From: Pseudovirgaria hyperparasitica
Taxonomy: Eukaryota
NCBI GenBank assembly: GCA_010093815.1
Contig: ML996567.1
DNA length: 64,000 nucleotides
Direction: 5' to 3' (one strand)
Program-made: the position numbers and the translations under genes
Shown here: positions 26,502 to 64,000 of the stretch, piece after piece
How the letters are laid out: each line of letters starts with the position of its first letter
Position numbering within the stretch: the first letter of the stretch is position 1
Notes under the pieces: generated by a model
What the model saw: only the letters and a program-made list of their open reading frames with translations
Told to the model about the DNA's origin: nothing
Database searches by the model: none

Positions 26502-26639
26502 TATTAAGGATAGAGATGTCAAGTCTTAGTCAAGTATTAAATTAATTACTAGCTACTTCATAGAATCTACGGCTATCTATATCGGACCTTTAGTCCGTAG
26601 TTCTTACCGTTATTCGTCTCCTTATTACTTTCCGTAATA
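26502..26639 (-). repeat. 3' LTR of element A
   Basis: Near-identical to 47248..47385. Termini read TA..TA, the RIP product of TG..CA. Confidence 0.95.
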
Positions 26640-26999
26640 GCTACCTCTAATTAAATCGAAATAATAAATTAACTCGAAACGATAATATCTTCTATAACGA
26701 TACTAAAGTCCGTTACTCTAGTAGGCTTACTTTAATTAGATGCTTACGTAGATACTACGCGAGGTTACTTCCTAAGTATCGGTAGAAGTATTAATAGTAT
26801 TATTATAATATAGCTCTACGTTTCTCCGGTTCTTACGCGAAGATAGCTTCTATTACCTTTAGATTTATAGTAACTATCTAAAGCCTATTATAAACCTTAA
26901 GGAAAGCTTCGAATTAGTTATTAGGGTATTTAAATATATGATTTAGTACTATTCTTATTACTCTTATTTCTTTTATATTTATTTAATCCATTCGTAGTA

Positions 27000-30895: not shown

Positions 30896-31859
30896 TATAT
30901 ACTATAGATATAAGAGTAAGGAGGAATTAATAACTGTTTAAGATTATAGATAAAACTTATTAAGCTAGAGTCTCTGCGAGGTTAAGGTAGAGGATAGAAA
31001 GATAAGTTACGCGTTAAGTTAAGGATGAGTAAGTAGAAGGTAAATCGAGCTTAGCGGTAAGAGTATTCGCAAGCGTGACGTTACTATTACTACCTTCCTT
31101 TAATAGTAGGGTAAATTCTCCTTTTACTAAGATTATATCTACTAGTACTAGATTTACGTCGTTAAGAGGACTAATAGTAGTAAGTATAGCGATAATATTC
31201 TTAACTACTAAATAGTATTATATTCATTATCGTCGTCGTATATAGTAATATATTCCTACTAACGGATACTAAACGGTAGTCTATAGCATATACTTAATAG
31301 CCGATCGAGATATACATAGTAAGTAGGGCATTCTCGGATCCTAGTATTAATCTATATAGATATAGTACTATAAGATTACTCCTTCATCGTCCTTACGGAA
31401 TTCGTATTATAATATATTAAGAATTCGTTTAAGCTCGTGGGTATATGGTAATAATTAATGTTACTATGTTTTTATTCACGGATTCTATTCCTCTTAGACC
31501 GTTATACTATTTCGCTTACTATTACTATGAATGTTTAGGGAACATAATTATAGGAATAGTTATATACATAGGCGTAGTTTCGGTGAAGTGTGTTTTTTAG
31601 GTTAGGGACGTATCTAATATTAGATATAATACTTTAATGCTATTATACGTTTAACATTAGATACAATTCTTTTATTAATATAATTCTTTTATTACACGGT
31701 AGTACTTCTAAAGGGTAAACGCGAAAAGGAACGTATATATATAATTAATAATAATTCGGAATTATATCCATCTTAGGTAGGAACCTTTCGGTTTCTAACC
31801 TAAGCTAGAATTTCAACGCTATGCAAGAAACGCCTCTTAGTACTCAAGGCTATAAATTC

Positions 31860-34800: not shown

Positions 34801-36548
34801 ATGTTATGTATTCTTATTAACGGGTAGGAATCTTTAACGGTAATTATATTAAGGCCTCTAATATTAATCACTACGCGTGGTTTCTATATCAGCCCATTTA
34901 TCTTTAGATTATAGACCTCTCTCTAGACGATAAAAACTAGGGAGCCGAATTAGATAGGCTTTTTACTCTAATCCATTTTGTCGTTATCGTAAAGCCCGTT
35001 AAAGGTTTTATTAATTACTTTACGGTCCCGAGGGCCGACGTTATATACTCTAGTATATAACTTCTTAAGTTCGCGCTAGTCCTCTATAAGGATAAGCTTT
35101 ACTTCCCTAGAGTTTACGATGGATTTTTTATCTTGCTATAACTCTATAAACTCTTTAATAAGTTCTTTATATTTTATAGCCTTCTCTTCCCTACTATAGA
35201 GTATTATTCCGTTTAGGAGACGAGTCTTAAGCTTAGAGTTAATATTCGCGGCTTCTAAGGGAGGAAGGGTAGCGAGGTCTACGTTAGTATCGGAGATTTA
35301 GTAGTATTCTATAATGTCTAGTTCGCGGATTTTACCGAGTACTATATTCCTTAGAATTATGAGTGTCTCGTTTCCGTCGTTCTTAATTATGATTCCTCTA
35401 CTACTAGAGTCGATAACTACCGTATACATTACGGCTTATCGCTTCCTAGTAGCGGAGAGGTACTCTTTCGTAGGTTTAAAAAGCATATCGCGATTATTTA
35501 GGAGGTTACGTATGTCTATAAGAACCACGCCTCTTAAATTAGGCTTAATAGATACTAAGTACTATGCTCTTACTATAACATTTAACTACTTCTTATATCT
35601 TAGGCGGACGCTTATAGGAGCTACCGTATTTTAGCCGTACGGAAAGGTAATCGTACGGTTTTAAACTTTAATGTCCATTTCTTCTAGACTAATGGTATCT
35701 ATACCTATTAGTAGTTTTAGTACTAGGTTTTTAATAATACGTGCTTCGCATTTAATAGTAACCGCGATATTAGTTCCTTCTACGGTAGTAGGTACCGTAA
35801 GTATTATTTTAACGGACTCGTTACTATTATAAACCTTATTACCAATACCCATAACTACTATTAGATGCATGAGTTTCGTGATATGCTTTTTATAATCTAG
35901 TAGGACTATGGCTAGCTAGTTTCTATCTACGAGACTTAGCTTTACTCCGGTATCTACGATTATTTATTTAGACTCTATGGTCCCGTTTAATATTACGTTT
36001 ATTATAATATAGTTCTAATAACGAAAGCGGTGGCCTTTCGTTCCTATCCTTTTTACGGTACTCTTAATAACTCGTGGTACTAGTAGAGGCGACGGAAACT
36101 CGTCTACCATGTATATATAATCCACTAGCTTCTTCGGATGCTTTTCCGTAATATACTAATATAGCTTATTATTAGAAGGATACTTTTATCCATAGACGCG
36201 ATAGTTCCTTGCTATAGTCCTTTTACTCTTCTACGGTTTCTTAAGCGATAGTACCGGTAGAGTCTTAACTTCCTTAGTTCTTACGAAGAAAACTCTAGCT
36301 AACTTCTTATAAGGTTCCTCGTCCGACTAGCTTTCTTTAGCTTACTCTTAAGCTTATCTACCCTAATCTTCGTCCGGCGAGTCTTCTTTATTTTATAATC
36401 CTTCTTAATTAAGAAACTCTACTAGAATGGTATTATAATAGGCGCGTTACGGCTTTATATAAGGTTGCCTCTCGACTTATATAGAAGTCGTCGTGGTCTT
36501 TTTAAAACTCTTTAGCTAATACTTACTATTCCCTTTATATAGGCGACG
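31860..36548 (-). pseudogene. Element A gag C-terminus and pol (protease, RT, RNase H, integrase, chromodomain)
   Basis: IVDTGVKLSLVD (~35950), KAYIDDIVVFS (~34575), FLDVDALKEYGF (~34080), DG*VERIN* (~32670), GPFKI...YELDLP...IH (~32240) and YLVKWKG (~32010). Confidence 0.92.
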
Positions 36549-36829
36549 GTCTCTATTAGGACGGGAACTATAATAGACCTATATAGACCATTCTAATCCA
36601 TGCAGCCACGTAGTGGCCAGAGCTAGGTTAAGTTAGCTAAGTTAAGCGAGGTTACTATATAAGTAGACCGTATAAACCAATTCCTACTCATTAGGAATCA
36701 ACCTTATATAAGAGTAAGATTACTCTATAAATACATTCCTATATCTCTCTATAAACTATTAGACTACTATCCCACGTCTTTACTCTTTATATTTTAATTC
36801 CTCTCTATATAGTACGACGGTAGCTTATA

Positions 36830-39800
36830 GAGATAGCTTCTACTACACGCTATAATACCCGTGGCACTACCTTACACGAGAGACTCTCTCTAAATCTAAA
36901 CGAAGAGAATAGTCTCCCTATAACCACCTCTACTAATAAGTATACTCTATAGGCTATCATACTAATAACTAGTATGGCATTCCGTATAACTATAGAAGAT
37001 TACCTAGATAATAAGGAAGGAGTCTATTATACTCCATCGCGGTCTAGTTTATACTATACTAGATCTATCCTTACTATAAGACTAGACTCTATTAACGTTA
37101 ATGAATTAATTTATTAGAACCGACTAACGTTAACCACGCCTTATAATAATATATATACTAAGCTACACGCGGAGAGGTAGTATTAGGCTTAGCTTAAGTA
37201 GTAACTTTGCGAACTCGACGAAGCGTAAGGACGAACCGCTAGACTCGAAGCCGTACTACGCGCTTTAGTACTAGTAGTAACTAATCTATACTAATATAGA
37301 CTAACTTAAGCTAAAATATTCTAACTAAGTCTATTACTATCCTAGTTACCTCGGCCTAAGAAACTATCTTACTTTAACGGTAAAACCAGGAGGAGCTTTT
37401 ACGAATAGGCTTACTAGTATAGCCGATTCTTCTACCTATTTATGAATAATAGTAATAAGATTAGATTCGTATAGAACTACCTAGACCTAACGCTATCTAA
37501 ACGTTAGATAGTATATCGAATTAAATACCCTAAGGATGCGTATAACTAGGACACGTTCACCGAATTCCTTCTTTAATACTTCGGCAATAGAGCCGAGCGA
37601 CGCGAATAGGCTTAGAGCTATATCTTTAAGACTTAATAGCGAGAGAGATAATCCCCGTTATAACTCCTTAAATACCTCCGACCTCTTTAGAGAGAAGCTA
37701 AGGAAGATCGCATGGTTCGATAATGCGACGACTTTAAAAGGTCCCTTAATCTAAGCGTAAAGGAACGTATCGACCTTATAACGTCTATCTCTACTAACCT
37801 TTAGATACTCGCGAATCTCGTAGAATAATATTAGCGTATAATAAATAACTAACGTCGTATAGGCGTATAACTATCCCTATTAATCTAATCTAATATAAAA
37901 TCATCTAAAGAGGACCGGTTTAGTAATAGATCGCGCGGAATACCTTATGGGCGCTACTACTCTACGAACTCGAGAAGATAAGGCCCGTACCACGGATCTT
38001 TCTACTAGTTAATATATTAAGACGCGAGAAACGACTTATATAAACGATCTAAAGTCACCTACTATATCTATAGTAGGATAGGCCATATAGTACCCGAGTG
38101 CCGCTTAGGGAAACCACCGAATACTAATATAGATACTAAGTTAGTTATATACTATAAGTGCTAGTAGCTAGGACACATCGCGCCTAACTACCCGGTATAC
38201 GATATAAAAAACTAACTATCTATAAGGAACCCTCGCGACTTATAGACATAACTAAAATAGAGGAATAACTAGCTAACTAGTATATCGAACTATAGGCTAG
38301 GCCTATTAAGGTCCCTCGTGGATAATATTAGACCGTAATACTTAATAGCGGTTTAGCTACTAACGTTATATCGACTTAACGAGTACGAGAACTTAACGTC
38401 AACATTTAAGTACTAATAGATACTACCTTCTATGGTATCGACGGTTCTATTAAATCGTAGGGTATCTATACTATTAAATACGGTATCTAGGATAGCGGGG
38501 GGAAGTAGAAACTCTACTACTTAACCTTTATTATAGTAGATAGTCCCTTCGACATAATCCTCGGTATACCGTAGCTTAAAAAATATAACCCGAAACTAGA
38601 CTTCATCTAGAAAACAGCTGGCTAGCGTATATACCTACTATAATAGAACCTAGTATAGCTAGTTAACGATAAATAATTCTAGAAGGACTACGAAAAGGTA
38701 ATCTCCGCTATCTATATCCTCTTACTTACTTAAAATAGAGAGCTTAGTATTAAAGTAGACGAAAACCTACTATATTAGTATAAAATATACTAATATATCG
38801 CGTTAGCGATTAACTCGTCCGAATTACCTTAATACTAATCTACTAACCTTACTATTAACCTTAAAGACGGTTAATAACCCCTATACGGACCCATCTACCC
38901 TCTATTAGAACCCGAGCTATAGGTCCTCCGAGAATACATTAAAAAGAACCTTATATAAGGATAGATTAGGCCTAGTATATCCCTAGCCGGAGCTCTAATC
39001 CTCTTTATAAAGAAGAAGGATAGGAGTCTCCGTCTATATATTAACTACTATAGCCTAAATAATATTATACGAAAGAATCGTTACCTACTACCTCTTATCT
39101 CTAAGTCTATTAATAGACTAGGGCGCGTGAAGATCTTTACTAAGCTCGATCTATATAACGCCTACTACCGCCTACGTATTAAGAAGGGCGATAAGTAGAA
39201 AACGGCGTTTAGGACCCGTTATAGACACTTCGAGTATATAGTAGTCCCTTTTAGACTAACTAACGCGCTAGGAACCTTCTAAGCGTATATTAATAACGTG
39301 CTAGTAGGTCTACTCGACATGACGTGTATTATATACCTTAATAATATTCTTATCTTCTCTAATAATAAAGAAGAACACATCTAGCACGTATACGTAGTCC
39401 TAGATAGGCTAGAAAAACATAAGCTATATATCAAGCTATCTAAATACGAGTTCCACTAGAACTATATTAACTTTCTTAGCTTCATTATTACTAATTAAGG
39501 TATAACCATAGAAAGGGATAGGGTTACTACTATTATGGACTAGCCTAAACTAAAATCGGTTTAAGATATACGTGTCTTTATCGGATTCGCTAATTACTAC
39601 CGAAAATTCGTTAAGTATTTCTCCCGGCTAGTAGCACCGCTTAACGCGCGTACTACTACTATAGATTCGTCTATTACGGTCCGCGGTAGATAGAAATAGC
39701 GTAATATTAAATCATAGCCTATAGAATTATTAGAAGGCGAAAGGGCCTCCTTCGAGAAAATCAAAGAGGCATTTATAACTACTCTATTACTAGTATACTT

Positions 39801-41950
39801 TAACCCGACTAAACCTATCTATATTAAAACCAACGCGTTAGGATTTATAATCTTAGATATTCTCTTCTAGCCTAGACTAACTAAGTCTAAAAAGGTCTAA
39901 TAGTATCTAGTTACGTTCTTCTCACGTAAAATAGTCGATATTAAGACTAGATATACTATCTATAACTAAGAGCTACTAGTAATAGTAGAGTCGTTTAAAT
40001 AGTAGCGATATTATCTTAAAGGTACTATATATAACGTTAAGTTACTAACTAATTACTATAACTTAAAGGGGTTTATAAGTATAACGGTTTTAAACCGTTA
40101 ATAGGTCTAATAGGCTAAGTAGCTTACGAACTTTTACTTTATAATCTACTATTAATCTAGAAGTATAAACCTAGCTAATAGAATATTAAGAAGACCTAAC
40201 TATAAAGAAGGCGCCTAGGATTATAGTAGCTATAGGGTCCTAGAGTAGCTATAGGCCTAACTCTTAAGGACGAGGTTGGATTTTAAGTTATTAGGCGATT
40301 AGTAAGATACTAATATTAATACTAGTAATCGAATCTCTAAGACCGAAGCTAGTAACTAAAGACGCGATACCGAAGTCCCTAGTAGGCCGTTTATTAGCGC
40401 TATCGGGAAGGGCGATAATACCTAGCGTAAATATCTAATTAACCTTACCTAGTTAATCGTGGATCTATAGAAGATAGACCCGATAGTTTTAAAGTTACGT
40501 AAAATATAGTAAGATAGGTTATTACGGACTAAAGTAGACTATAAGTAGACCTTTATAGACGGCTTACTTTACTATAATAGAAAGTACTATATACTAATAG
40601 GTAATACGCGATTTAATATAGTTAGCCGATACTATAACGCTAACCTAGTAGGACACTTTAGGTATATACGTACCCTAAGCTTAATTTATTAGTACTATTT
40701 TTAGGAAGATATACCTAAGTACGTTAAAGAATAGATAGCTACTTATCTAATTTATTAAAGAACGAAGGCCCCTAGGCATAAGCTATATAGGAATTTATAG
40801 CCTCTTTTAGCCCCCCTCTTTATATAGAAAGACGTTACTATAGACTTTATAGTTAACTTACCTCTAAGCGAGATACTTAGGATAAGTTATAATTCTATTC
40901 TTATTATTATAGATAGACTTATAAAGATATCTAGGTATATCCTAGTATAGAAGACGATTACATCTAAAGAACTAGCGTAGGTATTCTAGAACGAGATTAT
41001 TAAGGTCTATAGTATACTAAAAAGGATCGTTACGGACCGAGGAAGTACCTTTATATCTAAATTCTAGATATTATTCTACGAAATAGTAAGTATAAATAGG
41101 AATATATCTATAGTATTTTATCCTTAGACGGATAGCTAGATAGAGCGATAGAACTAGACGCTCGAGGCCTACCTACGTGTATTCTATAATTTTAAGTAGG
41201 ATAACTAGGCCTCCCTACTAAGTATAGTAGAGTTCGTATATAATAATAGTTATTATAGTATAATAGATATTATACCTTTCTAGGCGAACCTCGGATATAG
41301 TCTAAGGATAGGTTTTAAGCCTTAGACGGTCTAATTTAATCGAATAATAGACGTGAACGTCCACGCTTAGGAATTAGCGATTAAAATCTTTAAAACCGTA
41401 CGTAACTATCGCGCTATAATCTAATAAGTAAACGACTCGTATATAAAGTACTATAATAGGTTAGCTAAGAATTAGATGTACGAGGAGGGCGATAAGATTC
41501 TTCTTAATATCTATAATATATAAACGTTATAAGTAAATAAGAAGCTCGATTATAAAATGGCTGGTCCCTTCCGAATCAAACGTTATATTAGTATAAGAGC
41601 CTACGAGCTCGACTTAGGAAGCGATATAAGAATCTATAATATATTCTACGTCTTACTACTCGAAAGATTTCGATCTAACGTGTATGGCCGTACGAACGTG
41701 TAGTTATACTCTATTATACCCTAAGATAGACTAGACGTGTTCGAAGTGGACTATATTATTAAATATAGAATTAATAAAGATAGTATTTAGAAATATAGAA
41801 TCCGTTAGAAGGACTATACTAAGGACGAGGATACCTAGGAACCAGTGGTATATATCTTAAGTTCTATAATAACTACGTATAAGTAAAAGATATAGAATAG
41901 CGTATTATTAATATAAGTATAGCGATGTCGCGGTCATCGTAAAAAGAAAA
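36830..41950 (+). pseudogene. Element B gag-pol, RIP-inactivated
   Basis: FDIILGIP*L (protease), SLAGALILFIKKKDRSLRLYINY, KTAFRTRY, YLNN at 39334 (YLDN in copy 2, consensus YLDD), TNALGF (RNase H), TD RGS and TDS*IER*N*TLE (integrase), AGPFRI, and chromodomain YRIR*K...DT*EP. Confidence 0.93.
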
Positions 41951-42499
41951 AGGATACCATAAAGAATAAAGTACTAAACTAGGAAATCTAGACGCGCACT
42001 AGGAAAACTCTATATAGTAGCCCTATAATTCAAGTATTATATGGTTACTAGACGCGAAGAAAGCGTAAATAACCATTTTAGAAACGCGACGCGATATACT
42101 ATAATAGAATAATATAGAAGAGTCTAGAATGGACTAATATAGACTATTATATATAAGAAAAACATAGGACTAAGAACCTAAAAAAAGGTACCCTACCATA
42201 GAATTAAACTCTTAATATAAAATATAAAAGGTTAGAGTATCTAAACCGATAACTACTAGACTACTAGTTCGGGTACTCTAATAGAATTTATAGAGATAAA
42301 CTAATTTATATATGGTGCCTATACTTAGATAACTTAAGGAAAATTAGAATATAGAAACCGATAGTTATAAGCTAAGCGAGCGCATATATAATATTATTAA
42401 GTTAAGAATTAAATTACTAGAAACTAGCCGACGGGTATCTAAACGGTCTAAAAAGGACTAAAACGGATAAAAGCTAGGTAAATAGAGCCGGCGCGCACT

Positions 42500-43880
42500 A
42501 TCTATAGTAGATCTAGAATATATAGAGCTAGGCATAGAGCTAATATATAGAGCTAGAACTATAGAGCTACTTCTCTATCTTATTATCTATTCTAACCTCT
42601 AGTATAGTCCTCTCTAACCGTACGATATAGTAGTAGAGGATAACGACCTTAGCCTCTAGAGTAATAACCTAATCTATTAGAGTCTAGAGGGAAGAGCCTT
42701 AAGCGCCGGAGTGTAGCGACTAGGTCTAAAGTTAGCTAATATAATCTAGAATAATCTAGAAGGGAATATATACCCTCTTATAAGGCGACTTAGAGGGAGA
42801 AATAGTAGACCTCTTATAAGATCTATTAGTAGCGCGAGACGGACGAGGGGGGATAGAGTAAATCCTCTCTACGGCCTCTATAGCTAGGATAGACTCTCTA
42901 GAATAGGTAGCCTAGGCGCTAGGGATCTCGCGGCGGCTAGAAAAATTAACGGGTATTAAAAATAATTAACGTACTTATAACTTATACTTTAATAACCTCT
43001 AGAAAGAGCTTATAGCGCTCCCTAAACTCCCTCTATATAGTAGATAGACGGCTATAAGGACCCCTAAGGGTCTCGCGGACGCGAAGGTCGTTATATATAT
43101 CTTATATATATATAGGAACCTAAGAATGTATTAGCGCGGACCACTTTAGATTATACTAGATTAAGATAGCCTATTATACTTACCTATAGATAAGTCTTAC
43201 TAGTTATAGTATAGCGGCGGTAGCGGGTAGATAGAGTAAAGATAGGGCGTATAGGCCCGTCGCGGTTAGTAGAGTAGTAGCTAATACTAGAGTTAGAGCG
43301 AAAGAGATATTTAGAGCCGGCCGTATAGCCCTTAATATACTTATAGTATATTAAACCGTAGTTTACCGTTTTCCTATGGCGTAAACCGCGACTATATTTA
43401 GTATCCTTAGTGACCTAGGCCTTATTATTAGTAGGCTAGGGTTTAGAGTAAATATTAAGGTTCTAAAAGAATCTAGAGCGACTAAATCGGTCTATATTAG
43501 ACCGGAAGGAAGAGCGGCGAGGCGGCGGCGTGGGTAAGCGCGAGGGCTCGCGATTATTATCTATAACGAGATCTTCTTTATCCTCTAGAGGAGGTAGAGT
43601 AGATAGCGTACGCTTTAGAGTAAGAGGAGAACCTACGACTACTTTATCTATAAGTTTAATACTAGAATTACCTAGATTAGAGCGACTAGTAGCTATATTA
43701 GTAGTAGAGGTAGTAGTAGTAGTAGCTCTAGCTACTCTCTTCTCCGACTTAGAGCGCGCCTTTATACTACCGCGATAGGTAGGCTTCTTAGCCGGCGTGG
43801 CCGGGGAGGAGGCGATATCTTTAGAGCGAGTCTTATGAGAGAAGGAGGTAGGCTTAGAGATAGAACTAGTATTAGATATC
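42500..43880 (-). pseudogene. Antisense intron-containing cargo gene of element B (copy 1)
   Basis: Reverse complement of 57151..~58500. Intron 43120..43183 reads GTAAGT...GCTAAT...TAG. Confidence 0.65.
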
Positions 43881-44603
43881 TATATATATATATATTAGCT
43901 AGAGATCTAAGGAAGGAATATTTATCTACCCTTAACGGCGATTAATAAAGCTAAATTAGTAACCGTAATAACGCGAATAGGTTATATAGGACCGGTTCTA
44001 ATAAGAATAGACTACTATAGACCCTTCTAAACCTAAACTAGGGAAGATAGTATATGAATTAATAACTTACCTTAAGAGCGAGGTGGATATACTAGAGAAT
44101 AAAATTAAAGGCGAGCGAAGCTAAATATATGCTTAACTAAAGTAGCGATCACGTGTTCTAGGTAGTAGCTATAAAGTAAGGGATAAGCGCGTATATAAAC
44201 TAATAAAAGTAAACTAGAATCTCGAGTTTATCTATATTAAGGATAGTTATAACGTTATAGGAACTTAGTTACGGATATATAGATACACGATAGATTATAG
44301 AGACTTAGAATTATATATACTTAAGTACTTTAGGGCGAAGCATAGAAAGAAGAAGAATATTATTAGGACGGGAACTATAACGGACCTATATAGACTATTC
44401 TAATCTATATAGCCACGTAGTAGCTAGAGCTAGGTTAAGTTAGCTAAGTTAAGCGAGGTTACTATATAAGTGGACCGCATAAACCGATTCCTACTTATTA
44501 GGAATTAACCTTATATAAGAGTAAGATTACTCTATAAATACATTCCTATGTCTCTCTATAAACTGTTAGACTACTATCCCACGTCTTTACTCTTTATAGT
44601 CTC

Positions 44604-47247: not shown

Positions 47248-47385
47248 TATTAAGGATAGAGATGTTAAGTCTTAGTCAAGTATTAAATTAATTGCTAGCT
47301 ACTTTATAGAATCTACGGCTATCTATATCGGACCTTTAGTCCGTAGTTCTTACCGTTATTCGTCTCCTTGTTACTTTCCGTAATA
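47248..47385 (-). repeat. 5' LTR of element A
   Basis: 138-bp copy of 26502..26639, followed by TSD GAATC. Confidence 0.95.
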
Positions 47386-47759
47386 GAATCTTATATAATT
47401 TTATTTATATCTTACTATAAGAATATTTATTAAGTTTTTCTAAAAGACTAAAGAATCTTAAAGAGATAGATAATAGAGAAAATCTCTATTTTCTCTTCTT
47501 CTCTTCTGAATATACCTTAGTACCTTAGTAGTTACCTTTTTTATATATGCTACAGAGCTTTTCTTAGAATTACTAATTAATCTTTTCTTTTCTTTTTCTT
47601 AATTTTATCACATAGAAAGTAAGAGACTATATAGAAGTATATTTAGATATAATTAGAAAACTTTCTAGAGTCCTAGTTCTAGAGTTATTAGAGAAAATAT
47701 AAGTTTTTAAGAATTAAGAGAAAATGTATATGTTGCCATTCCTGACATGTCCCTCCCTA

Positions 47760-50502: not shown

Positions 50503-51024
50503 CTTATTCAGTAACATACGGCAAAGCATACGCTTGCGGCAAACGTGTGTAGGCACATCGTCTCAACAGCTGGAGCTTGGGCGATTCAAGAGGCCTCTAA
50601 ATATCAGCGACCCTTGTCAAAAGAGGCAAAGTTCGAGTCACTCGATTCAAAATTCAATCAAATCGCTGGTCAATCGGAAAGGCCTTTTGGCTGCCTGGCC
50701 TTGAGCGATCAACTTCCAAGTGTGTTTTGTCTCGGGAATGCCTGCCTCCATGTCACTGACTCTTGCCGAGACTCGTCCCGCACCTATCATGTAGGCCTCT
50801 GGCAGTTGAGTGTGACGAAAATGCATTGATATGCATCGTTTCACACATGAGGAAGACTGCGCACGTAAGCTGAACAACCTTATCGGGACTGTTCTGCGCA
50901 CATCCACATCAGCTGAACAACCTTTTCGGGACTGGTGCTCAGCCTCGTCGAAGGACGTTCACTTACTTTTGTAAACTATTTACGATCTCGAGAATCATGT
51001 AGAGCAATACATAGTTGTTCCATC

Positions 51025-52383
51025 ATGGACGAGGCGCTAGAGCTCTGTTTCGCTGAGGACCACGACATCTTACCAGACATCTACGTGGATTTGTTTAGTA
51101 ACTTTTTGGACTCCGACCTGTTCGAACAATGGCAAGAGATAGGATGGCATTTCCACTGTACTGGTGGACCAGGATGTGGAAAGGTACAGATAATCACCAA
51201 GCTGGTACAAGACTACATATTAACCTTCATGGAGACAACCTTGGCGGCAATCGTCAGTAGCAAGCTGAGAACGAAGTCACAAAACGTCGTAGCATCCATC
51301 TTTATCACCAAGCGAGTCGCGGGTTACCCAGTATCTCTCCTGCGTATATACTTTCTGGACATGCTTCACTCCCAGCTCCTCGAATTGTCCACTAGTGCTG
51401 TAGACAAAGGAACGGACCGCAAGGAGCGTATCCAGCAATATCGGCACAGTATATATGAGTTCCTTGATACGAGGAAACACGTTTTCTTGGTGATAGACAG
51501 CATTGACTACTGCGATACGATCTCTTCTGTGGTGCTTGAGGAGGAACTGACTATGCTTCATGATCATGGGCTCCGAATCTTCACCACTTCACGAATCCCG
51601 AGCTTGTTCAAAAAGGAAGAGATGGAAGATGAAAAGTGCAGAGTTCCAGAATGCATAGACGGCCTGAACCGATTCTGGTGGCGGAGTAGGGCGTCTAACG
51701 GGTCAGAAGTCTACAGTGTCTGCGCGTCCTGTAAGAGCACCGACAAGTCGTATGACGACCTAGAAGTATTCCCTTCACAAGTGGAATACCGCATGGATGA
51801 ATGCGTTACCGATGCCAAGCTTCGGGAGTATGTAGCTTGGGATCTGAATAGAGAGCACGGATACCTTGGCCTAGGCTTACCGAACGAACATCTACCACAG
51901 TACCAGGGGTCAAGACTCGGACAGCAGATGCAGCAGACTGAAGAGTATACAACTCAACTGGTCGATCACGTAGTAGAGTCTGGCGCTTTCAATGTTGCAA
52001 TTGTGAAGATGAGGCTCGACAACTTACTCCATGCAACTTCATTAGAACAAGCAATGTCATTGCCGGATAGGTTACCAAGAAACCTTCAGACGTTCTGCGA
52101 TGCAATCTTGAAGCCGATCACGACGATGTCGGATGAAGAAACAAAGAACAAGATCTGCGGCCTGTTGGTGCTGGAAGACATCGTCGACGAGGATGATGAT
52201 ATCGATCCTGGCGAGGAGTTACTTGCGTTGATTCGTAAAGCTAATGGCCTTCTTGCTGTGTTTCCGGATGGAACACAATGTTGCAATCCCGTCCTTACAA
52301 GATACATTAACGACGACTATGATGAGGATTTGTATACGATAAAGTGCAACGTGAGAAATCAGGGAGCGGGTGTCACGGTCTAA
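51025..52383 (+). CDS. NACHT/NPHP3-N-like P-loop NTPase domain protein without effector or repeat domains
   Basis: Removing the probable in-frame intron 51184..51234 gives Walker A CTGGPGCGKTTLA. Walker B VFLVIDSID, then LRIFTTSR, a Cys-containing insert, and a helical region (AIVKMRLD...LPRNL). Confidence 0.7.
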   Translation: MDEALELCFAEDHDILPDIYVDLFSNFLDSDLFEQWQEIGWHFHCTGGPGCGKVQIITKLVQDYILTFMETTLAAIVSSKLRTKSQNVVASIFITKRVAGYPVSLLRIYFLDMLHSQLLELSTSAVDKGTDRKERIQQYRHSIYEFLDTRKHVFLVIDSIDYCDTISSVVLEEELTMLHDHGLRIFTTSRIPSLFKKEEMEDEKCRVPECIDGLNRFWWRSRASNGSEVYSVCASCKSTDKSYDDLEVFPSQVEYRMDECVTDAKLREYVAWDLNREHGYLGLGLPNEHLPQYQGSRLGQQMQQTEEYTTQLVDHVVESGAFNVAIVKMRLDNLLHATSLEQAMSLPDRLPRNLQTFCDAILKPITTMSDEETKNKICGLLVLEDIVDEDDDIDPGEELLALIRKANGLLAVFPDGTQCCNPVLTRYINDDYDEDLYTIKCNVRNQGAGVTV

Positions 52384-52453
52384 TCAGAATAGAAAGCTGC
52401 GCATAGGCCCCCGGACTGGCTAGCAGAGGGTAACACACTCACCTGAACTTGGT

Positions 52454-54684
52454 TCATCTGATCAGTATGTCCCAGCCAGTGTCTTTCCCTCGAGTCCCAG
52501 GTAGATGTTCGTGGTCTCCATCGCAGATATTTCGCAAAGAGGTCCAAGACCGCTGGTCCAGACCTGTAAATCGAAAAGAGCCTGATCTTGTAAATTGTCG
52601 AGGGATTTCGCTCACTGGAGTAAGTAGCAGACCGATGCCAGTATATCGCCAATCTGACTCCCCACGAGGCGAGAAATCTCGGCTCTCACCTTCATTTTTG
52701 GTGTATGCCAGAATGCAGAAGCTTGAATTGGTGTCTCGTGGAATCGTGTCTGGAAAGACATCAATCACACCTTCACTCAGCTTCAGATCGAAAGTCCAGC
52801 TTTCACCACGCTCTTGAATCTCCACGCTCCCCACGTGACAAGTTATCTCTATGGCTCGTTCGTCCCATGTCAGTAGATCATGGGTTGCTGCAGAGTCGGA
52901 CTCTGCTGGCAACTCAGATGGCATGTGTATAATACCTTGCTCTGCCTTGTGCAAAGATACAGCCCGGACTGGGTTACCACTATGATCTTTCGCTTCTTCA
53001 GTCCTGTTCTTATTGATTCTGGTGGGAAGGTCGATCATGCCTCTGATAGACGCCCAGGACCAAGTAGGAAACCTATGAATGTCGTTCTCCTTTGGATCAG
53101 GAGCAGGGCGTTGAGATGGCGTGGCGACCCTCCACGCAAGTTGTTCCACAAGGTGTATGAGCCAAAGCCCTCCGTGATACTTGTCGCCAGTGGCCTCCTC
53201 AACCAGCACCGCAACACCCTCGAGTGCCTTCAGCTTATCCTTCCATTTGGTCAAGTTGCACCGAGTGTAATTTCCGACAGCAAGCTGCCAGAAATTCTCA
53301 ATCGAATCGTCACCTCTTCCCCAGGTCTGGTGAGCTTCAAAGAGTTTCCGCTCATGCAGTCTCATTCGCCAATGTCGGTCGCTCGCCGCCCGTCCGTCCA
53401 GTGCGTATGGTAGACCCTGAGGAAACACTTCACTCGCAGTGAGTTCTGCACAGTCCCAGAATACCTGATTCCGGCCATAATGCACGATTCTGGCTGCCAG
53501 CATACGTTCTGACGCTTATTAATCTATAGCGAGAGGCCTGTTTGAACGATGTAGACTGACCTTGAAAAACCCACGCTCTGCTGTAGAGGTACAATCTAAG
53601 AAGCTCTGACTCCCACCAGTCCTTTCGAAATACAGACCAGTTTCGGTTAGTGTAGACTTTTGTCCGTGCAGGAGTACGAAAGTGCGCTGGTAGGAATGAG
53701 CTTCGCTGGCGATCTCGGAAAAGGCCCATTGTTGCGTTGCAGCTATCGGCAGCAGCGATATTGCATAAAGCGCTCCGGTACACCTGGTGCATCAGGGGAG
53801 CTTGGAACGTCCAGTCTGTCCCACCGTCGCCTTGCTGGATGATACAAAGAGAATCTATCCAGAGCCATGACAGACCAAGATGCTTTGCAACTAGTATTGC
53901 TTCTTGAAACGTCTTTGGTAGCCGAGACCATTCGATACCAGAGGCTTCGAAGAGCTTTTGGTTGTCTTTAGTAAGCGTGTCAAACTTATGAATCTTATGA
54001 TTACCCCAAGCGTGGCTAAGTGTCGCATATAGGAGTCCTGTCACTGTCGATTGAAATTCTTTATCACTTTCCACTATCCTAATGTTGGCTCCTAGAGGAA
54101 CGTCGATCTTCAGCAGACGTCTGGGGATGAATGGAGCATGAGGATTGGTGAGAAGTTTTTTGCATCTTGTATGTTCTTCTCGACAGGTTTCCATCCATGC
54201 CGTAATTTGATTGAACGATTGTTCGAGCTTTGTACTTCGCCCGAAATGTCTTTCTGGGGGAACTAGACTGTTGTAAGTCACACGGGAGGCTTACACAGTG
54301 ACGTATCTCACCATCAATATCTGGTATGAGCGAAAAGATTCGGTCTTCCAACAAAGCCGCATTTAGATGGCCTAATGGGCGAAACGTGAGAACAATCTCG
54401 CCACCAGTTGTCTCCCTCGTAGACCCTGGTCTGCGGAGCGACCATCTGTAGAGAGGAAGGTTGACATCAGCTCTTATGTGACCGTCTTGGAGGAATTGGT
54501 GGTAAAGGTCTTGACAGATCATACAAGAAGTATTGAGGGACCTCTTCAGGGAATCGACATCGTTGTGATGGGTTCCGACCAGCTCGTCGCCCTTGAATTG
54601 CTGATGCAAGCAAAAATCGCAAAGCTTATTGCCAACGCCACGTGATATTGGTGGCTCATTGCGGATCGTTAGTTGTTCAATCAT
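52454..54684 (-). CDS. HET (heterokaryon incompatibility) domain protein; 3 exons
   Basis: WMETCREEH..C, PRRLL, YATLSHAWG, LPKTFQEAI, WLWIDSLCIIQ, MHQVY..A.CNIAA, SRAWVFQERMLA.R, YT.C.LT...D and FPTWSWAS. Introns 54263..54311 and 53509..53560. Confidence 0.93.
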
Positions 54685-55930: not shown

Positions 55931-56433
55931 CCTTCCCCTAAATAGACGCGTAAGCAAGAGAGTAAGAGAAAGAAAACCATGTTAGTTAGAATTTACACCC
56001 CTATAACCAGCTACGTAGACCCCGCGCGCCCCTAACCGCGGTACTCCGAACGACTCTAGCAAGTAACAGGCCAAATAAGAAACTCTCACCGATCAGGATG
56101 ATTAGAATGATTAGTTGTAGTAAAACGGCCCCCGTTACACCTAGACGTGAGCATATACAATCCGAATCTATGTAATCTCAATCTAGGCCAAAATTTTAAT
56201 AGAGAATACAAGCTTAATCTACGACTTAAAATGATTGCTAAGACAGTATAATCTTAATCTAATTAGCTAGATTAATTATATTAGATTAAATATATAGGTC
56301 CTAGATAGCGGATATTTAATAAGCTAACGGATATATAACATAAGGCTCTATATATAGCTAAACTAGTTAATTTTAGTAGGGTTCTAGTAGTAAGTTTCTT
56401 AATATACCTAACTCTATACTATAAGGGAGTTTA

Positions 56434-59400
56434 TATAAAGAGTAAAGACGTGGGATAGTAGTCTAACAGTTCATAGAGAGACATAGAAATGTATTTATAG
56501 AGTAATCTTACTCTTATACGAGGTTGATTCCTAACGAGTAGGAATCGGTTTATACGGTCTACTTATATAGTGACCTCGCTTAACTTAGCTAACTTAACCT
56601 AGCTCTAGCCACTACGTGGCTATATAGATTAGAATAGTCTATATAGATCCGTTATAGTTCCCATCCTAATAATATTCTTCTTCTTTTTATGCTTCGCCCT
56701 AAAGCACTTAAGTATATATAATTCTAAGTCTCTATAATCTATCGTGTACCTATATATCCGTAACTAAGTTCCTATAATATTATAACTATCCTTAATATAG
56801 GTGAACTCGAGATTCTAGTTTACTTTTATTAGTTTATATACGCGCTTATCCCTTACTTCGTGGCTACTACCTAGAATATATAATTACTACTTTAGTCGAG
56901 TATATATTTAGCTTCGCTCGCCTTTAATTTTATTCTCTAGTATATCCACCTCGCTCTTAAGGTAAGTCGTTAATTTATATACTATCTTCTCTAGTTTAGG
57001 TTTAGAAGGGTCTATAGTAGTCCATTCTTATTAGAACCGGTTCTATATAACCTATTCGCGTTATTACGGTTACTAATTTAGCTTCGTTAATCGCCGTTAA
57101 GGGTAGATAAATATTCCTTCCTTAGATCTCTAGCTAATGTATATATATAGATGTCTAATACTAGTCCTATCTCTAAGCCTATCTCTTTCTCTTATAAGAC
57201 TCGCTCTAAAGATATCGCCTCCTCCCCGGCCACGCCGGCTAAGAAGCCTACCTATTACGGTAGTATAAAGGCGCGCTCTAAGTCGGAGAAGAGAGTAGCT
57301 AGGGCTGCTACTACTACTACCTCTACTACTAATATAGCTACTAGTCGCTCTAATCTAGGTAATTCTAGTACTAAACTTATAGATAAAGTAGTCGTAGATT
57401 CTCCTCTCGCTCTAAAGCGTACGCTATCTACTCTACCTCCTCTAGAGGATAAAGAAGATCTTATTATAGACGATAATCGCGAGCCCTCGCGCTTACCTAC
57501 GCCGCCGCCTTACCGCTCTTCCTTCCGGTCTAATATAGACCGATTTAGTTACTCTAGGTTCTTTTAGGACTTTAATATTCGCTCTAAACCCTAGTCTACT
57601 AATAATAAGGCCTAGGTCGCTAAGGATACTAAACGTAGTTACGGTTTACGCTATAGGAAAACAGCGAACTACGGTTCGATATACTATAAGTATATTAAGG
57701 GCTATACGGCCGGCTCTAAATATCTCTTTCGCTCTAACTCTAGTATTAGCTACTACTCTACTAACCACGACGGGCCTATATACTCTATCTTTACTCTACC
57801 TACCCGCTACTACCGCTATACTATAACTAGTAAGACTTATCTATAGGTGAGTATAATAGGCTATCTTAATCTAGTATAATCTAAAGTGGTCCACGCTAAT
57901 ATATTCTTAGGTTCCTATATATATATAAGATATATATAACGACCTTCGCGTCCGCGAGACCCTTAGGGGTCCTTATAGCCGCCTATCTACTATATAGAGG
58001 GAGTTTAGGGAGCGCTATAAGCTCTTCCTAGAGGTTATTAAAGTATAAGTTATAAGTATATTAATTATTTTTAATACCTATTAATTTTTCTAGCCGCCGC
58101 GAGATCCCTAGCGCCTAGACTATCTATTCTAGAGAGTCTATTCTAGCTATAGAGGCCGTAGAGAGGATTTACTCTATCCCCCTCTATCTATCTCGCGCTA
58201 CTAACGGATCTTATAAGAGGTCTACTATTTCTCCCTCTAAGTCGCCTTATAAGAGGGTATATATTCCCTTCTAGATTATTCTAGATCGTATTAGCTAACT
58301 TTAGACCTAGTCGCTACGCTCCGGCGCTTAAGGCTCTTCTCTCTAGGCTCTAACGGATTAGGTTATTACTCTAGAGGCTAAGGTTATCGTCCTCCGCCGC
58401 TATATCGTATAGTTAGAGAGAACTATACTAGAGATTAGGATAGATAATAAGATAGAGGAGTAGCTCTATGGTTCTGGCTCTATATATTAGCTCTATGCCT
58501 AGCTCTATATATTCTAGATCTACTATAGGTAGTGCGCGCCGGCTCTATTTACCTAGCTTTTATCCGTTTTAGTCCTTTTTAGACCGTTTAGATATCTATC
58601 GGCTAGTTTCTAGTAATTTAATTCTTAACTTAATGATATTATATATGCGCTTACTTAGCTTATAACTATCGGTTTCTATATTCTAATTTTCCTTAAGTTA
58701 CCTAAGTGTAGGCACCGTATATAAATTAGTTTATCTCTATGAATTCTATTAGAGTACCCGAACTAGTAGCCTAGTAGTTATTAGTTCGGGTACTCTAACC
58801 TTTTATATTTCGTGTTAAGAGTTTAATTCTATAGTAGGGTACCTTTTTTTAGGTTCTTAGTCCTATGTTTTTCTCGTGTATAATAGTCTATATTAGTCTA
58901 TTCTAGACTCTTCTATATTATTCTATTATGGTATATCGCGTCGCGTTCCTAAAATGGTTATTTATACTTTCTTTACGTCTAGTAACTATACGACGCTTAA
59001 ATTATAGGGCTACTATATAGAGTTTTTCTAGTACGCGTCTAGATTTCCTAGTTTAGTACTTCGTTCTCTACGGTATCCTTCTTCTTTTTATAACGACCGC
59101 GACGTCGCTATACTTATATTAATAATACGCTATTCTATATCTTTTGCTTATACGCAGCCATTATAGAACTTAAGATATATACTACTAGTTTCTAGGTATC
59201 CTCGTCCTTAGTATAGTCCTTCTAACGGATTCTATATTTCTAAATACCGTCTTTATCGATCCTATATTCGATAATATAGTCTACTTCGAACACGTCTAGT
59301 CTATCTTAGGGTATAATAGAGTGTAACTATACGTTCGTGCGGCTATACATGTTAGATCGAAATCTTTCGAGTAGTAAGACGTGGAATACGTTATAAATTC

Positions 59401-62400
59401 TTATATCGCTTCCTAAGTCGAGCTTATAGACTCTTATACCGATACGACGTTTAATTCGGAAGGGACTAGCCATTTTATAATCGAGCTTCTTATTTACTCG
59501 CGACGTTCGTATATTACGGATATTAAGAAGGATCTTATCGCCCTCCTTATACGTCTAATTCTTAGCTAACCTATTATAGTACTTCGTATACGAGTCGTTT
59601 ACTTATTAGATTATAGCGCGATAGTTATATACGGTTTCGAAGATTTTAATCGCTAATTCCTAAGCGTGGACGTTTACGTCTATTATTCAATTAAATTAGA
59701 CTATCTAAGGCTTAAAACCTATCCTTAGACTACGTCCGAGGTTCGCCTAGAAAGGTATAATACCTATTATACTATAACGACTATTATTATATACGAACTC
59801 TACTATACTTAGTAGGGAGGCCTAGTTATCCTACTCGAAATTATAGAATGCGCGTAGGTAGGCCTCGAGCGTCTAGTTCTATCACTCTATCTAGCTATCC
59901 GTCTAAGGATGAAATACTATAGATATATTTCTATTTATACTTACTATTTCATAGAATAACGTCTAGAATTTAGACGTAAAGATACTTCCTCGGTCCGTAA
60001 TAATCCTTTTTAGTATACTATGGACCTTAATAATCTTATTCTAGAACACCTACGCTAGTTCTTTAGATGTAATCATCTTCTATACCGGGATATATCTAGA
60101 TATCTTTATAAGTCTATCTACGATAATAAGAATAGAATTATAACTTATTCTAAGTATCTCGCTTAGAGGCAAGTTAACTATAAAGTCTATAGTAACATCT
60201 TCCTATATAAAGAGGGGGGCTAAAAGAGGCTATAAATTCCTATATAGCTTATATCTAGGGGCCTTCGTTCTTTAATAAATTAGATAAGTAGCTATCTATT
60301 CTTTAACGTACTTAGGTATATCTTCCTAAAAATAGTACTAACGAATTAAGCTTAGAGTACGTATATACCTAAAGTATTCTACTAGGTTAGCGTTATAGTA
60401 TCGGCTAACTATATTAAATCGCGTGTTATCCGTCGGTATATAGTACTTTCTATTATAGTAAAGTAAGCCGTCCACGAAGGTCTACTTATAGTCTACTTTA
60501 GTCCGTAATAACCTATCTTACTATATTTTACGTAACTTTAAAACTATCGGGTCTATCTTCTATAGATCCATAATTAACTAGGTAAGGTTAATTAGATATT
60601 TACGCCGGGTATTATCGCCCTTCCCGATAGCGCTAATAAACGGCCTACTAGGGACTTCGGTACCGCGTCTTTAGTTACCGGCTTCGGTCTTAGAGATTTA
60701 ATTACTAGTATCGATGTTAGCATCTCGCTAATCGCCTAATAACTTAAAATCTAACCTCGTCCTTAAGAGTTAGGCCTATAGCTACTCTAGGACTCTATGG
60801 CTACTATAATCCTAGGCGCCTTCTTTATAGTTAGGTCTTCTTAATATTCTATTAGCTAGGTTTATACTTCTAGGTTAATAGTAGATTATAAAGTGAAAGT
60901 TTATAAGCTACTTAGCCTATTAGACCTATCGACGGTTTAAAACTATCATACTTATAAACCTCTTTAAGTTATAGTAATTAGTTAGTAACTCGACGTTATA
61001 TATAGTACCTTTAAGATAATATCGCTACTATTTAAACGACTCTACTATTACTAGTAGCTCTTGGTTATAGATAGTATATCTAGTCTTAATATCGACTATT
61101 TTATATGAGAAGAACGTAACTAGATACTATTAGACCTTTTTAGACTTAGTTAGTCTAGGCTAGGAGAGAATGCCTAAGATTATAAATTCTAACGCGTCGG
61201 TTTTAACGCGGATAGGTTTAGTTAGGTCGAAGTATACTAGTAATAGGGTAGTTATAAATGCCTCTTTGATTTTCTTAAAGGAGGCCCTTTCGCCTTCCGA
61301 TAATTCTATAGACTATAATTTAATATTATACTATTTCTATCTACCGCGGACCGTAATAGACGAATCTATAGTAGTAGTGCGCGCGTTAAGCGGTACTACT
61401 AGCCGGGAGAAATGCTTAACGAATTTTCGGTAGTAATTAGCGAATCCGATAAAGACACGTATATCTTAAACCGATTTTAGTTTAGGCTAGTCCACGATAG
61501 TAGTAACCCTATCTCTTTCTATGGTTATACCTTAATTAGTAATAACGAAGCTAAGGAAGTTAACGTGGTCCTAGTAGAACTTATATTTAGATAGCTTAAT
61601 ATATAGCTTATATTTTTCTAGCCTATCTAGGACTACGCGTACGTGCTAGATGTATTCTTCTTCGTTATTAGAGAAGATAAGGATGTTATCGAGGTATACG
61701 ATACACGTCGTGTCGAGTAGGCCTACTAGCGCGTTATTAATATACGCTTAGAAGGTTCCTAGCGCGTTAGTTAGTCTAAAAGAGACTACTATATACTCGA
61801 AGTGTCTATAACGGGTCCTAAACGCCGTTTTCTACTTATCGCCCTTCTTAATACGTAGGCGGTAGTAGACGTCGTATAGATCGAGCTTAGTAAAGATCTT
61901 CACGCGCCCTAGTCTATTAATAGACTCGGAGATAAGAGATAGTAGATAACGATTCTTTTACGTGATGTTATTTAGGCTATAGTAGTTAATATATAGATAG
62001 AGACTTCTATCCTTCTTCTTTATAAAGAGGATTAGAGCTCCGGCTAGAGATATACTAGGCCTAATCTATCCTCGCGTAAGGTTCTTTTCGATATATTCTT
62101 AGAGGACCTATAGCTCGGGTTCTAATAGAGGGTAGATGGGTCCGTATAGGGGTTATTAACCATCTTTAAGGTTAATAGTAAGGTTAGTAGGTTGGTATTA
62201 AAGTAATTTAGACGAGTTAATCGCTAACGCGATATATTAGTATATTTTATACTAATATAGTAGGTTTTCGTCTACTTTAATACTAAGCTCTCTATTTTAA
62301 GTAAGTAAGAGGACGTAGATAGCGGAGATTACCTTTTTATAGTCCTTCTAGAATTATTCATCGTCGACTAGCTATACTAGGTTCTATTATAGTAGGTATA

Positions 62401-64000
62401 TACGCCAGCCAGCTGTTTTCTAGATAAAGTCTAGTTTCGGGTTATATTTTTCGAGCCACGGTATACTAAGAATTATGTTAAAGGGACTATCTACCACGAT
62501 AAAGGTTAAGTAGTAGGGTTTCTACTTCCCCCCGCTGTCCTAGATACCGTATTTAATAGTATAGGTACCCTATAATTTAATAGGACCGTCGATACTATAG
62601 AAGGTAGCACCTATTAGTACTTAAATATCGATATTAAGTTCTCGTGCTCGTTAAGTCGATATAACGTTAGTAGCTAAACCGCTATCGAGCATTACGGTCT
62701 AATATTATCCATAAGGGACCTCGATAGGCCTAGCCTATAGTTTAATATACTAGTTAGCTAGTTATCCCTCTATTTTAGTTACGTCTATAAGTCGCGAGGG
62801 TTCCTTATAGATAGTTAGTTTTTTATATCGTATACCGGGTAGTTAGGCGCGATGTATCCTAGCTACTAGCACTTATAGTATATAACTAACTTAGTATCTA
62901 TATTAGTATTCGGTGGTTTCCCTAAGCGGTACTCGGGTACTATATAGCCTATCCTACCATAGGTATAGTAGATAACTTTAGGTCGTTTATACGAGTCGTT
63001 TCTCGCGTCTTAATATATCGACTAGTAGAAAGATCCGCGGTACGGGCCTCGTCTTCTCGAGTTCATAGAGTAGTAGCGCCCACGAGGTATTCCGCGTAAT
63101 CTATTACTAAACCGGTCCTCTTTAGACGATTTTATATTAGATTAGATTAATGGGGATAGTCGTACGCCTATACGATATTAGTTATTTATTATATACTAAT
63201 GTCGTTCTACGAGATTCGCGAGTACCTAAAGGTTAGTAGAGATAGACGTTATAAGGTTAATACGTTCCTTTACGCTCGGGTTAAGGGACCTTTTAAAGTT
63301 ATTATATTATTAAACCATATAATCTTCCTCGGCTTCTCTCTAAAGAGGTCGGAGGTATTTAAGAAGTTATAACGGGGATTATCTCTCTCGCTATTAAGTC
63401 TTAAAGATATGGCTCTAAGCCTATTCACGTCGCTCGGCTCTATTACTAAAGTATTAAAGAAGGAATTCGGTGAACGTGTCCTAGTTATACGTATCCTTAG
63501 GGTATTTAATTTAATATACTATCTAACGTTTAGATAGCGTTAGGTCTAGGTAGTTCTATACGAACCTAATCTTATTACTATCGTTTATAAATAGGTAGAA
63601 GAATCGGCTATACTAGTAAGCCTATTCGTGAAAGCTTCTTCTGGTTTTACCGTCGAAGTAAGGTAGTTTCTTAGGCTAAGGTAACTAGAATAGTAATAGA
63701 CTTAGTTAGACTATTTCGGCTTAAGTTAATCTATATTAGTATAGATTAGTTACTACTAGTACTAAAGCGCGTAGTACGGCTTCGAGTCTAGTAGTTCGTT
63801 CTTACGCTTTATTAAGTTCGTGAAGTTACTACTCGAGCTAAGTCTAATACTACCTCTCCGCGTGTAGCTTAGTATATATATTATCGTGAGGCGTGGTTAA
63901 TATTAGTCGGTTCTAACGAATTAATTCGTTAATATTAATAGGGTCTAGTCTTATAGTAAGGATAGGTCTAGTATAGTATAAACTAGACCGCGATAGAGTA
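56434..64000 (-). mobile_element. Element B copy 2 (inverted relative to copy 1), truncated by the window end
   Basis: 3' LTR at 56434..56671. Collinear reverse complement of 37030..44598 (positions sum to ~101030). RT motif YLDN at 61685..61696. Confidence 0.96.
57151..58500 (+). pseudogene. Antisense intron-containing cargo gene of element B (copy 2)
   Basis: The frame from ATG 57151 runs 232 codons, interrupted only by TAG stops, exactly to a phase-0 donor GTGAGT (57847), with branch GCTAAT (57895) and acceptor TAG (57910). The 3' end is approximate. Confidence 0.7.

Follow-up and report, generated by a model that had tools for sequence, protein, structure and literature searches.

A candidate antisense accessory gene, inactivated by repeat-induced point mutation, between pol and the 3' long terminal repeat of a chromovirus in Pseudovirgaria hyperparasitica

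We analysed a stretch of 64,000 nt (hereafter the window) from contig ML996567.1 of Pseudovirgaria hyperparasitica (GenBank assembly GCA_010093815.1), a filamentous ascomycete of the class Dothideomycetes, and found that a Ty3/gypsy chromovirus present there in two copies, here termed element B, contains a former protein-coding region between its pol gene and its 3' long terminal repeat (LTR). The region, which both copies share, lies within the element, at positions 57151-57846 in copy 2 and 43879-43184 in copy 1. With a probability of about 0.55, we regard it as an accessory gene that lay antisense to gag-pol as an integral part of the chromovirus and that was destroyed by repeat-induced point mutation (RIP). 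This arrangement, an antisense open reading frame (ORF) between pol and the 3' LTR, is known as aORF-3R. The architecture has already been described, fungi included; what is new is the unrelated sequence, the different fungal class and a possible intron.

Both copies lie in AT-rich blocks (approximately 26.3-48 kb and 55.3-64 kb, GC content near 0.35) that bear the signature of RIP: TA makes up 17-18% of the dinucleotides in this DNA, and CA and TG each account for 1% or less. A preliminary description of the window had noted a frame of 232 codons, opening at ATG 57151, in which the only stops are TAG. Our counts confirmed this frame, with TAG at codons 139, 148, 155 and 232 and no other stop; every one of these is a TAG that RIP can derive from CAG or TGG. 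The exclusive use of TAG is itself weak evidence, since RIPed DNA contains hardly any TGA, and reading through TAA and TAG would leave each of the six frames open. The number of stops in 57151-57846 was 4 in the antisense frame versus 12, 39, 9, 19 and 49 in the other five, and 4 was the minimum among 14,610 sliding windows of 232 codons taken from the block in all frames (mean 22.4, first percentile 8). The first open run, of 138 codons, was the longest of the 1,512 runs in the block, and its counterpart in copy 1 was equalled in the first block only by a stretch of a second gypsy element (element A, see below). None of 3000 first-order Markov simulations of the same composition gave as few as four stops or an open run as long as 138 codons.

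The same region showed a pronounced codon periodicity. TA dinucleotides were distributed 24/20/74 over the three codon phases of the ORF, and the chi-square value for TA phase in 600-nt windows rose to 48 in the ORF and to 46.6 in its copy 1 counterpart, compared with at most 18 anywhere in pol. The phase was steady from 57148 to 57840 and was gone after 57841. Saturating RIP leaves TA at codon junctions, where a codon ending in C precedes a codon starting with A or G, which also explains why so few stops arose within the frame. Over the 696 nt of the ORF, the two copies were identical at 650 positions and aligned without a gap or indel; every difference was a transition, and the 36 codons that differed comprised 8 synonymous and 28 nonsynonymous changes. 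These results show that 57151-57846 is a former protein-coding region.

Within the element, the ORF lies between the end of pol, at approximately 59051, and the polypurine tract (PPT, 56673-56690) and LTR (from 56671), and the interval of approximately 2.4 kb that had been reported from the chromodomain to the 3' LTR (56433-56671 in copy 2) of element B was confirmed. Among short DNA contigs with the same organism label, 10,491 (X1) and 3,731 (X2) matched the 3-kb stretch that includes this interval, and all 30 bins were covered, although contig depth over this stretch is not a copy count. Runs X3 and X4, which bear the same species label, contributed no match there. The contigs differed there almost exclusively by transitions, which, together with their coverage of the whole stretch, indicates that the family carried the segment along as it multiplied. 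In two DNA runs, a single contig each joined position 57508 to 57826 with nine other letters between them and thus represents a deletion variant of the element in which the C-terminal part of the ORF is missing. A nested foreign insertion, which the preliminary description had named as a possible refutation, was rejected, as no terminal repeats or target site duplication (TSD) were found around the segment. The only sequence bracketing the segment is a PPT-like 18-mer that also occurs inside the reverse transcriptase (RT) region.

With respect to the coding strand, the codon-aligned frame on the minus strand, which is sense with gag-pol, is also stop-poor because TA at codon junctions is symmetric. 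However, the plus-strand frame contains only its 4 TAG codons, compared with 9 stops (7 TAG and 2 TAA) on the minus strand. In addition, the periodic stretch opens exactly with an ATG on the plus strand, and a stop in the same frame directly precedes it. A log-likelihood ratio of codon usage, trained on eight Pfam-confirmed host ORFs after simulated RIP, favoured the plus strand in copy 2 (+13.4) and copy 1 (+16.0); when applied to 20 control chunks of known sense, it averaged 7.4 and was above zero in 85% of them. The ratio based on the RIPed pol codon usage of the element itself also favoured the plus strand (+6.0). A six-frame scan of codon scores was too weak to recover even pol cleanly and is given minor weight. 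Provided that the stretch is coding, the start codon, the stop count, the codon-usage ratios and the splice-like motifs described below make the antisense reading quite probable on statistical grounds.

The ORF is followed directly by a candidate spliceosomal intron of 64 nt (Table 1). The motifs previously listed for it, namely GTGAGT in copy 2, GTAAGT in copy 1, GCTAAT and TAG, were present as stated and are kept in both copies. CTAAT lies 11 nt upstream of the acceptor TAG, and the donor, branch site, acceptor and length fit a fungal intron in each copy; the G/A difference between the donors is a RIP-type transition, and both forms are valid donors. The donor follows the terminal TAG of the ORF without a gap; that TAG may be a CAG changed by RIP, in which case the junction would have been the consensus CAG/GTGAGT. 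In 57.2 kb of RIPed strand, GTRAGT occurred 24 times and the full pattern GTRAGT...CTRAY...YAG only five times, two of which were the copies of this site. Since the full pattern is so rare, its occurrence by chance at exactly this position is unlikely. Overall, we put the odds that the candidate intron is real at roughly even. A branch site and acceptor ending at 57150 had also been noted; they were found, as part of a possible leader intron (56962-57150), and no TA periodicity was detected in 56672-57150. The second intron that had been suggested at 58043-58092 has no canonical donor in the present sequence.

The translation of the ORF is low in complexity and rich in Ser, Thr and Pro, with a C-terminal part derived from Arg. 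The preliminary description had proposed that reversal of RIP would turn Tyr codons into Cys codons and so restore a zinc-cluster motif, but the sequence did not support this proposal. Neither copy contains a Cys codon in the ORF. Ten variable sites have Tyr in one copy only, and there the less-mutated codon was CGY (Arg; CGC or CGT) in 8 cases (codons 36, 121, 134, 144, 162, 164, 211 and 221), CAT (His) in 2 (codons 15 and 168) and TGY in none. The majority letters of the contigs at codon 221 read CGC in place of TAC. Conversion of CpG to TpA by double transition is frequent under RIP in this DNA, with many CG/TA differences between 56433-59000 and 42000-44598, an alignment in which all 167 of 167 substitutions were transitions. 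Since CpG was converted to TpA in such double steps, the Tyr-rich C-terminal third of the product was probably rich in Arg rather than in Cys. A Zn2Cys6 or other Cys-rich zinc-binding domain is thus not supported: the frame has no Cys codons, TGY was not among the less-mutated codons at the variable Tyr sites, and no Pfam zinc-finger family matched.

Several results weigh against the interpretation as a spliced antisense accessory gene. The ORF protein had no Pfam match. When it was compared with a word-indexed library of 5.8 G proteins, none of the 423 candidates scored reached E <= 0.01; phmmer against 1.84 G representatives returned 0 matches at E <= 0.001; the best ESM Atlas score was 0.75 (recognition 1181), with no homolog; and a metagenome scan with the ORF produced 588 pattern matches, 0 of which were confirmed. 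A single-sequence AlphaFold2 model contained no confident fold (mean predicted local distance difference test score, 46.6). The net charge of the product is uncertain because T precedes 16 of its 21 Lys codons and 11 of its 12 Asn codons, which could have been Glu or Asp codons before RIP; one such Lys codon is GAG in most contigs, at 57621-57622. TA periodicity is unable to separate the two strands, and the codon-usage ratio is an imperfect classifier, since it fell below zero for 15% of the control chunks. After 57846, neither periodicity nor stop depletion was found by TA phase, stop density or codon scan, although this downstream test has low power, as pol itself has 7.7% stops versus approximately 9.5% in the background. 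Accordingly, the earlier proposal of an antisense cargo gene stands with respect to a former coding segment inside the element in antisense orientation but not with respect to further exons. It may be that translation really ended at the terminal TAG and that the donor motif is there by chance. Finally, the function suggested for the gene comes by analogy only.

The search for relatives was extended to other LTR elements. Against 80 metagenomic chromovirus loci, whose identity to the RIPed pol of element B was 29-46%, tblastn with the ORF found no relative (best E, 3.1), and BLASTP of the ORF protein against the spacer frames of element A found no similarity. Homology to BRTN, the product of the brtn gene of the fungal element Boty, was not detected in the 5.8 G and 1.84 G libraries, which should include the NCBI entries for BRTN; BRTN itself was not compared directly, and RIP lowers the sensitivity of such searches. 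Because no homology to BRTN was detected, we place the ORF in an architectural kind, aORF-3R, and not in the brtn gene family.

The brtn gene was reportedly described in 2011 (Zhao et al. 2011, Virology 417:248). Boty and element B are both fungal gypsy elements, Boty with a chromodomain and element B with sub-threshold matches to one, and in both the interval from pol to the 3' LTR contains an extra ORF that has no recognised domain and runs antisense to gag-pol. They differ in that Boty inhabits Leotiomycetes whereas the present host belongs to the Dothideomycetes, and in that the copies studied here are dead through RIP and possibly contain an intron. Passages of PMC7264820, PMC8365987, PMC4227169 and PMC5987419 place brtn in Botrytis and Sclerotinia, and the first three of these sources show that the statement that fungal chromoviruses encode only gag-pol, made in the preliminary description, was too sweeping. 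In the literature searched, which did not extend to supplements or to the original brtn paper, no antisense ORF in a fungal gypsy element other than brtn was found, nor was any publication on the transposons of P. hyperparasitica.

In plants, passages of PMC7264820 list gene23 of Grande, RIRE2, Wallabi, Gran3, Retand and PvRetro13 as having the aORF-3R arrangement, with maize, rice and Silene as the hosts of Grande, RIRE2 and Retand, respectively; the gene23 product is described there as a nuclear protein, expressed from its own promoter upstream of the ORF. The plant genes share with the ORF of element B their position, their orientation and their lack of similarity to database entries, and a nuclear or regulatory role has been proposed for them. 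In contrast, they belong mostly to non-chromovirus lineages with much longer spacers, some encode domains (SMC, transposase 28), and expression has been shown for several, whereas the ORF of element B is known from DNA alone. A third comparison is offered by the HBZ type of human T-cell leukemia virus type 1 (HTLV-1), which in passages of PMC7264820 consists of an antisense transcript arising from or near the 3' LTR, sometimes spliced, that encodes a regulatory nuclear protein. Those genes belong to vertebrate retroviruses, with a promoter embedded in the LTR and bZIP-type domains, and the likeness to element B is architectural only.

By analogy with these systems, the antisense gene of element B would have been transcribed from a promoter of its own, located in the approximately 480 bp beside the 3' LTR or within the LTR. 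Its product would have been a low-complexity protein of about 231-237 residues, rich in Ser, Thr and Pro in its N-terminal two thirds and in Arg at its C-terminus, and may have functioned in the nucleus, or by acting on nucleic acid, in the course of the element's life cycle. One 64-nt intron near the 3' end of the gene is possible, and the antisense orientation would have protected it from loss during retrotransposition. Both copies in the window have since been inactivated by RIP, and such RIPed copies are probably not transcribed. A more specific version, in which the spliced antisense gene encoded an Arg-rich, Rev/Tat-like RNA-binding regulator, specific to the lineage, that served replication of this Dothideomycete chromovirus and that would, together with element A, mean that accessory genes were repeatedly invented in fungal gypsy elements, appears distinctly unlikely. 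If it were true, the regulator would have contributed to the rise of the family, before RIP, to a place among the commonest repeats of the genome, and the coding-like stretch of element A would suggest that accessory genes are common in fungal gypsy elements rather than an oddity of Botrytis.

The main rival to an integral accessory gene is that the region was a passenger: an ancestor of the family would have captured part of a host gene in antisense orientation, and this part would then have been copied along without a role in the life cycle. The ORF protein indeed has no retroelement-like domain and no relative in the 80 metagenomic loci or in element A, and a kept intron would suit a gene taken from genomic DNA. 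At either end of the extra 2.4 kb stands a PPT-like 18-mer (at 56673 and 59074, with 17 of 18 positions identical) that could be a footprint of recombination, but a third 18-mer inside RT encodes a conserved KKKD, and the bracket may be a coincidence. Moreover, no host paralog was found in the protein libraries (the host genome itself lay outside the search), the ORF is complete with its own ATG and is not truncated, and the segment was already present as the family multiplied to very many copies; we consider capture as a passenger rather unlikely. It is also conceivable, although improbable, that the minus-strand frame was the coding one, that is, a third ORF following pol in the sense of gag-pol (an env-like gene or ORF3), with the plus-strand frame as its shadow. 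Plant elements with a sense ORF following pol have been described (in passages of PMC7264820), sense ATG-initiated ORFs occurred in 5 of the 21 metagenomic chromoviruses with an LTR pair, and both codon-aligned frames are stop-poor, the minus-strand frame having 9 stops in 232 codons. That number is twice as many as on the plus strand, however, and includes TAA; Arg would make up 19% of the minus-strand product, and 35% of its second codon positions would carry G; and all three codon-usage ratios favour the plus strand, on which the start codon, the stop preceding it and the three splice-like motifs (donor, branch and acceptor) are also read.

Least probable, and in our view very unlikely, is that the region never encoded a protein and that its periodicity stems from a decayed repeat of the trinucleotide type or from a quirk of spacer composition. 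The presence of a microsatellite-like (CTA)12 run at 57308-57343, the recurrence of short CGCTCTAA-type motifs (family D2) and a low-complexity translation without homologs or a predicted fold would fit such an origin. However, a tandem-repeat finder detected only the 36-nt run, and the periodicity kept a single phase over approximately 700 nt and ended sharply at the terminal TAG; an ATG at the start of the stretch and the result of the composition-matched simulations (0 of 3000) also argue for a coding origin.

Accessory genes of LTR retrotransposons are poorly catalogued, and the literature searched cites one case in fungi, brtn. A second and unrelated fungal case, from another class and possibly containing an intron, would support the repeated acquisition of antisense regulators, as in complex retroviruses. 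The analysis also makes a point of method: TA-phase periodicity recovers dead coding regions in RIP-saturated DNA that are missed by stop counts and homology searches. The finding has limited practical weight, because element B survives in the window only as two dead copies and the gene cannot be given a function.

Table 1. Coordinates of element B and of the antisense ORF and its flanks in the window
Feature	Positions	Strand	Remarks
Antisense ORF (exon 1), copy 2	57151-57846	+	ATG plus 231 codons, terminal TAG; RIP-inactivated
Same ORF, copy 1	43184-43879	-	Start codon now ATA; same four TAGs
Candidate 64-nt spliceosomal intron, copy 2	57847-57910	+	GTGAGT; GCTAAT 57895-57900; acceptor TAG 57908-57910
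Same candidate intron, copy 1	43120-43183	-	Donor GTAAGT
Possible short terminal exon	57911-57928	+	Predicted, conditional on the intron: five codons followed by TAA in phase 0; identical in both copies
LTR-to-ATG interval, about 480 bp	56672-57150	+	Presumed promoter and 5' untranslated region of the antisense gene
Possible 189-nt leader intron	56962-57150	+	AAG/GTAAGT ... GCTAAT ... TAG, from sequence motifs alone
Spacer remainder, pol to 3' LTR	57929-59050		TA-phase chi-square 0.2-3.9; stop density as in background
Element B copy 1, complete	36554-44598	+	LTRs 36554-36791 and 44361-44598 (238 bp), direct orientation; TSD GTCTC (5 bp)
Element B copy 2	56433-64000	- (reverse)	Extends past the window end
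3' LTR, copy 2 (238-239 bp)	56433-56671	-	Self-BLAST to both copy 1 LTRs; three-way LTR alignment
PPT	56673-56690	-	A/G-rich run immediately before the LTR start, both copies
pol, copy 2	59051-63424	-	RT, RNase H, integrase, SH3, degraded chromodomain; RIPed; at least two frames

Self-BLAST gave 92.7% identity between the two copies of element B over 7569 bp. The minus strand of copy 2 matched the Pfam families RVT_1 (E = 1.4e-18), RT_RNaseH_2 and RT_RNaseH, followed further 3' by SH3_Tf2-1; the order RT, RNase H, integrase fits Ty3/gypsy, and homologs carry rve, Integrase_H2C2 and SH3 domains. These homologs were chromovirus polyproteins with 32-46% identity, and most of the relatives listed contain the Chromo domain (PF00385). 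In the two copies themselves, the matches to PF00385 scored 16.6 and 18.0 bits (E = 0.0077 and 0.0027), below the cut-off of 25.1 bits, in sequence degraded by RIP. The pol frame ends near 59051, leaving approximately 2.4 kb to the PPT and 3' LTR, and this spacer also contains a 25-bp tandem duplication (58461-58513) and a near-perfect hairpin (58749-58798) with 20-nt arms that are 95% complementary and a 10-nt loop. The 18-nt polypurine motif mentioned above occurs three times per element, at 56673-56690, 59074-59091 and 62008-62025 in copy 2 and at 44342, 41939 and 39005 in copy 1. These sites correspond to the 3' PPT, the extreme end of pol (17 of 18 nt identical) and the KKKD-encoding site inside RT, and the six matches in the window compare with 0.23 expected. 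The repeats could be internal PPTs, a footprint of the acquisition of the 2.4-kb spacer or a coding coincidence.

The architecture of element B was also compared with that of the metagenomic loci. An LTR pair was found in 21 of the 80; among these 21, 7 had a spacer of at least 1.2 kb and 6 had an antisense ATG-initiated ORF of at least 100 codons, but these ORF counts lack a control for chance, several of the ORFs look spurious, and the counts have little bearing on element B. Three un-RIPed loci (L013:6063-7210, L029:6063-7000 and L048:13713-14265) had 1.4-4.1 kb between pol and the 3' LTR and antisense ATG-initiated ORFs of 160-231 codons. No similarity was found among any of the antisense ORFs of the metagenomic loci or between them and the ORF of element B. 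In L013 and L029, two antisense ORFs overlap in different frames, which could mean an intron; the antisense ORFs of L029 and L048 look protein-like and contain Cys pairs.

Element A, the second and larger gypsy element, spans 26502-47386 and measures approximately 12.8 kb when the nested copy 1 of element B is excluded. It has LTR-like repeats at 26502-26640 and 47248-47386, a pol on the minus strand at 31476-36956 and a spacer of approximately 5 kb that separates pol from the presumed 3' LTR. Within this spacer, approximately 27650-28700 is strongly periodic and stop-poor, with a TA-phase chi-square of up to 36 and 14 stops in 467 codons, and an open run of 180 codons lies on the plus strand at 28143-28682. 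A stop-poor frame in the sense orientation extends from 29405 to 30796 (18 X in 463 codons). The coding-like stretches of element A showed no resemblance to the ORF of element B.

The GC-rich parts of the window contain ordinary genes, which encode phenylalanine ammonia-lyase, MON1, YVC1, D-serine dehydratase, and HET and NACHT proteins. The phenylalanine ammonia-lyase was 100% identical to a protein assigned by name to P. hyperparasitica, whereas the next best hit reached only 50% identity. The two RIPed blocks are separated by a short GC-rich island (50917-54290) that holds a NACHT (NPHP3_N) gene and a gene with a HET domain.

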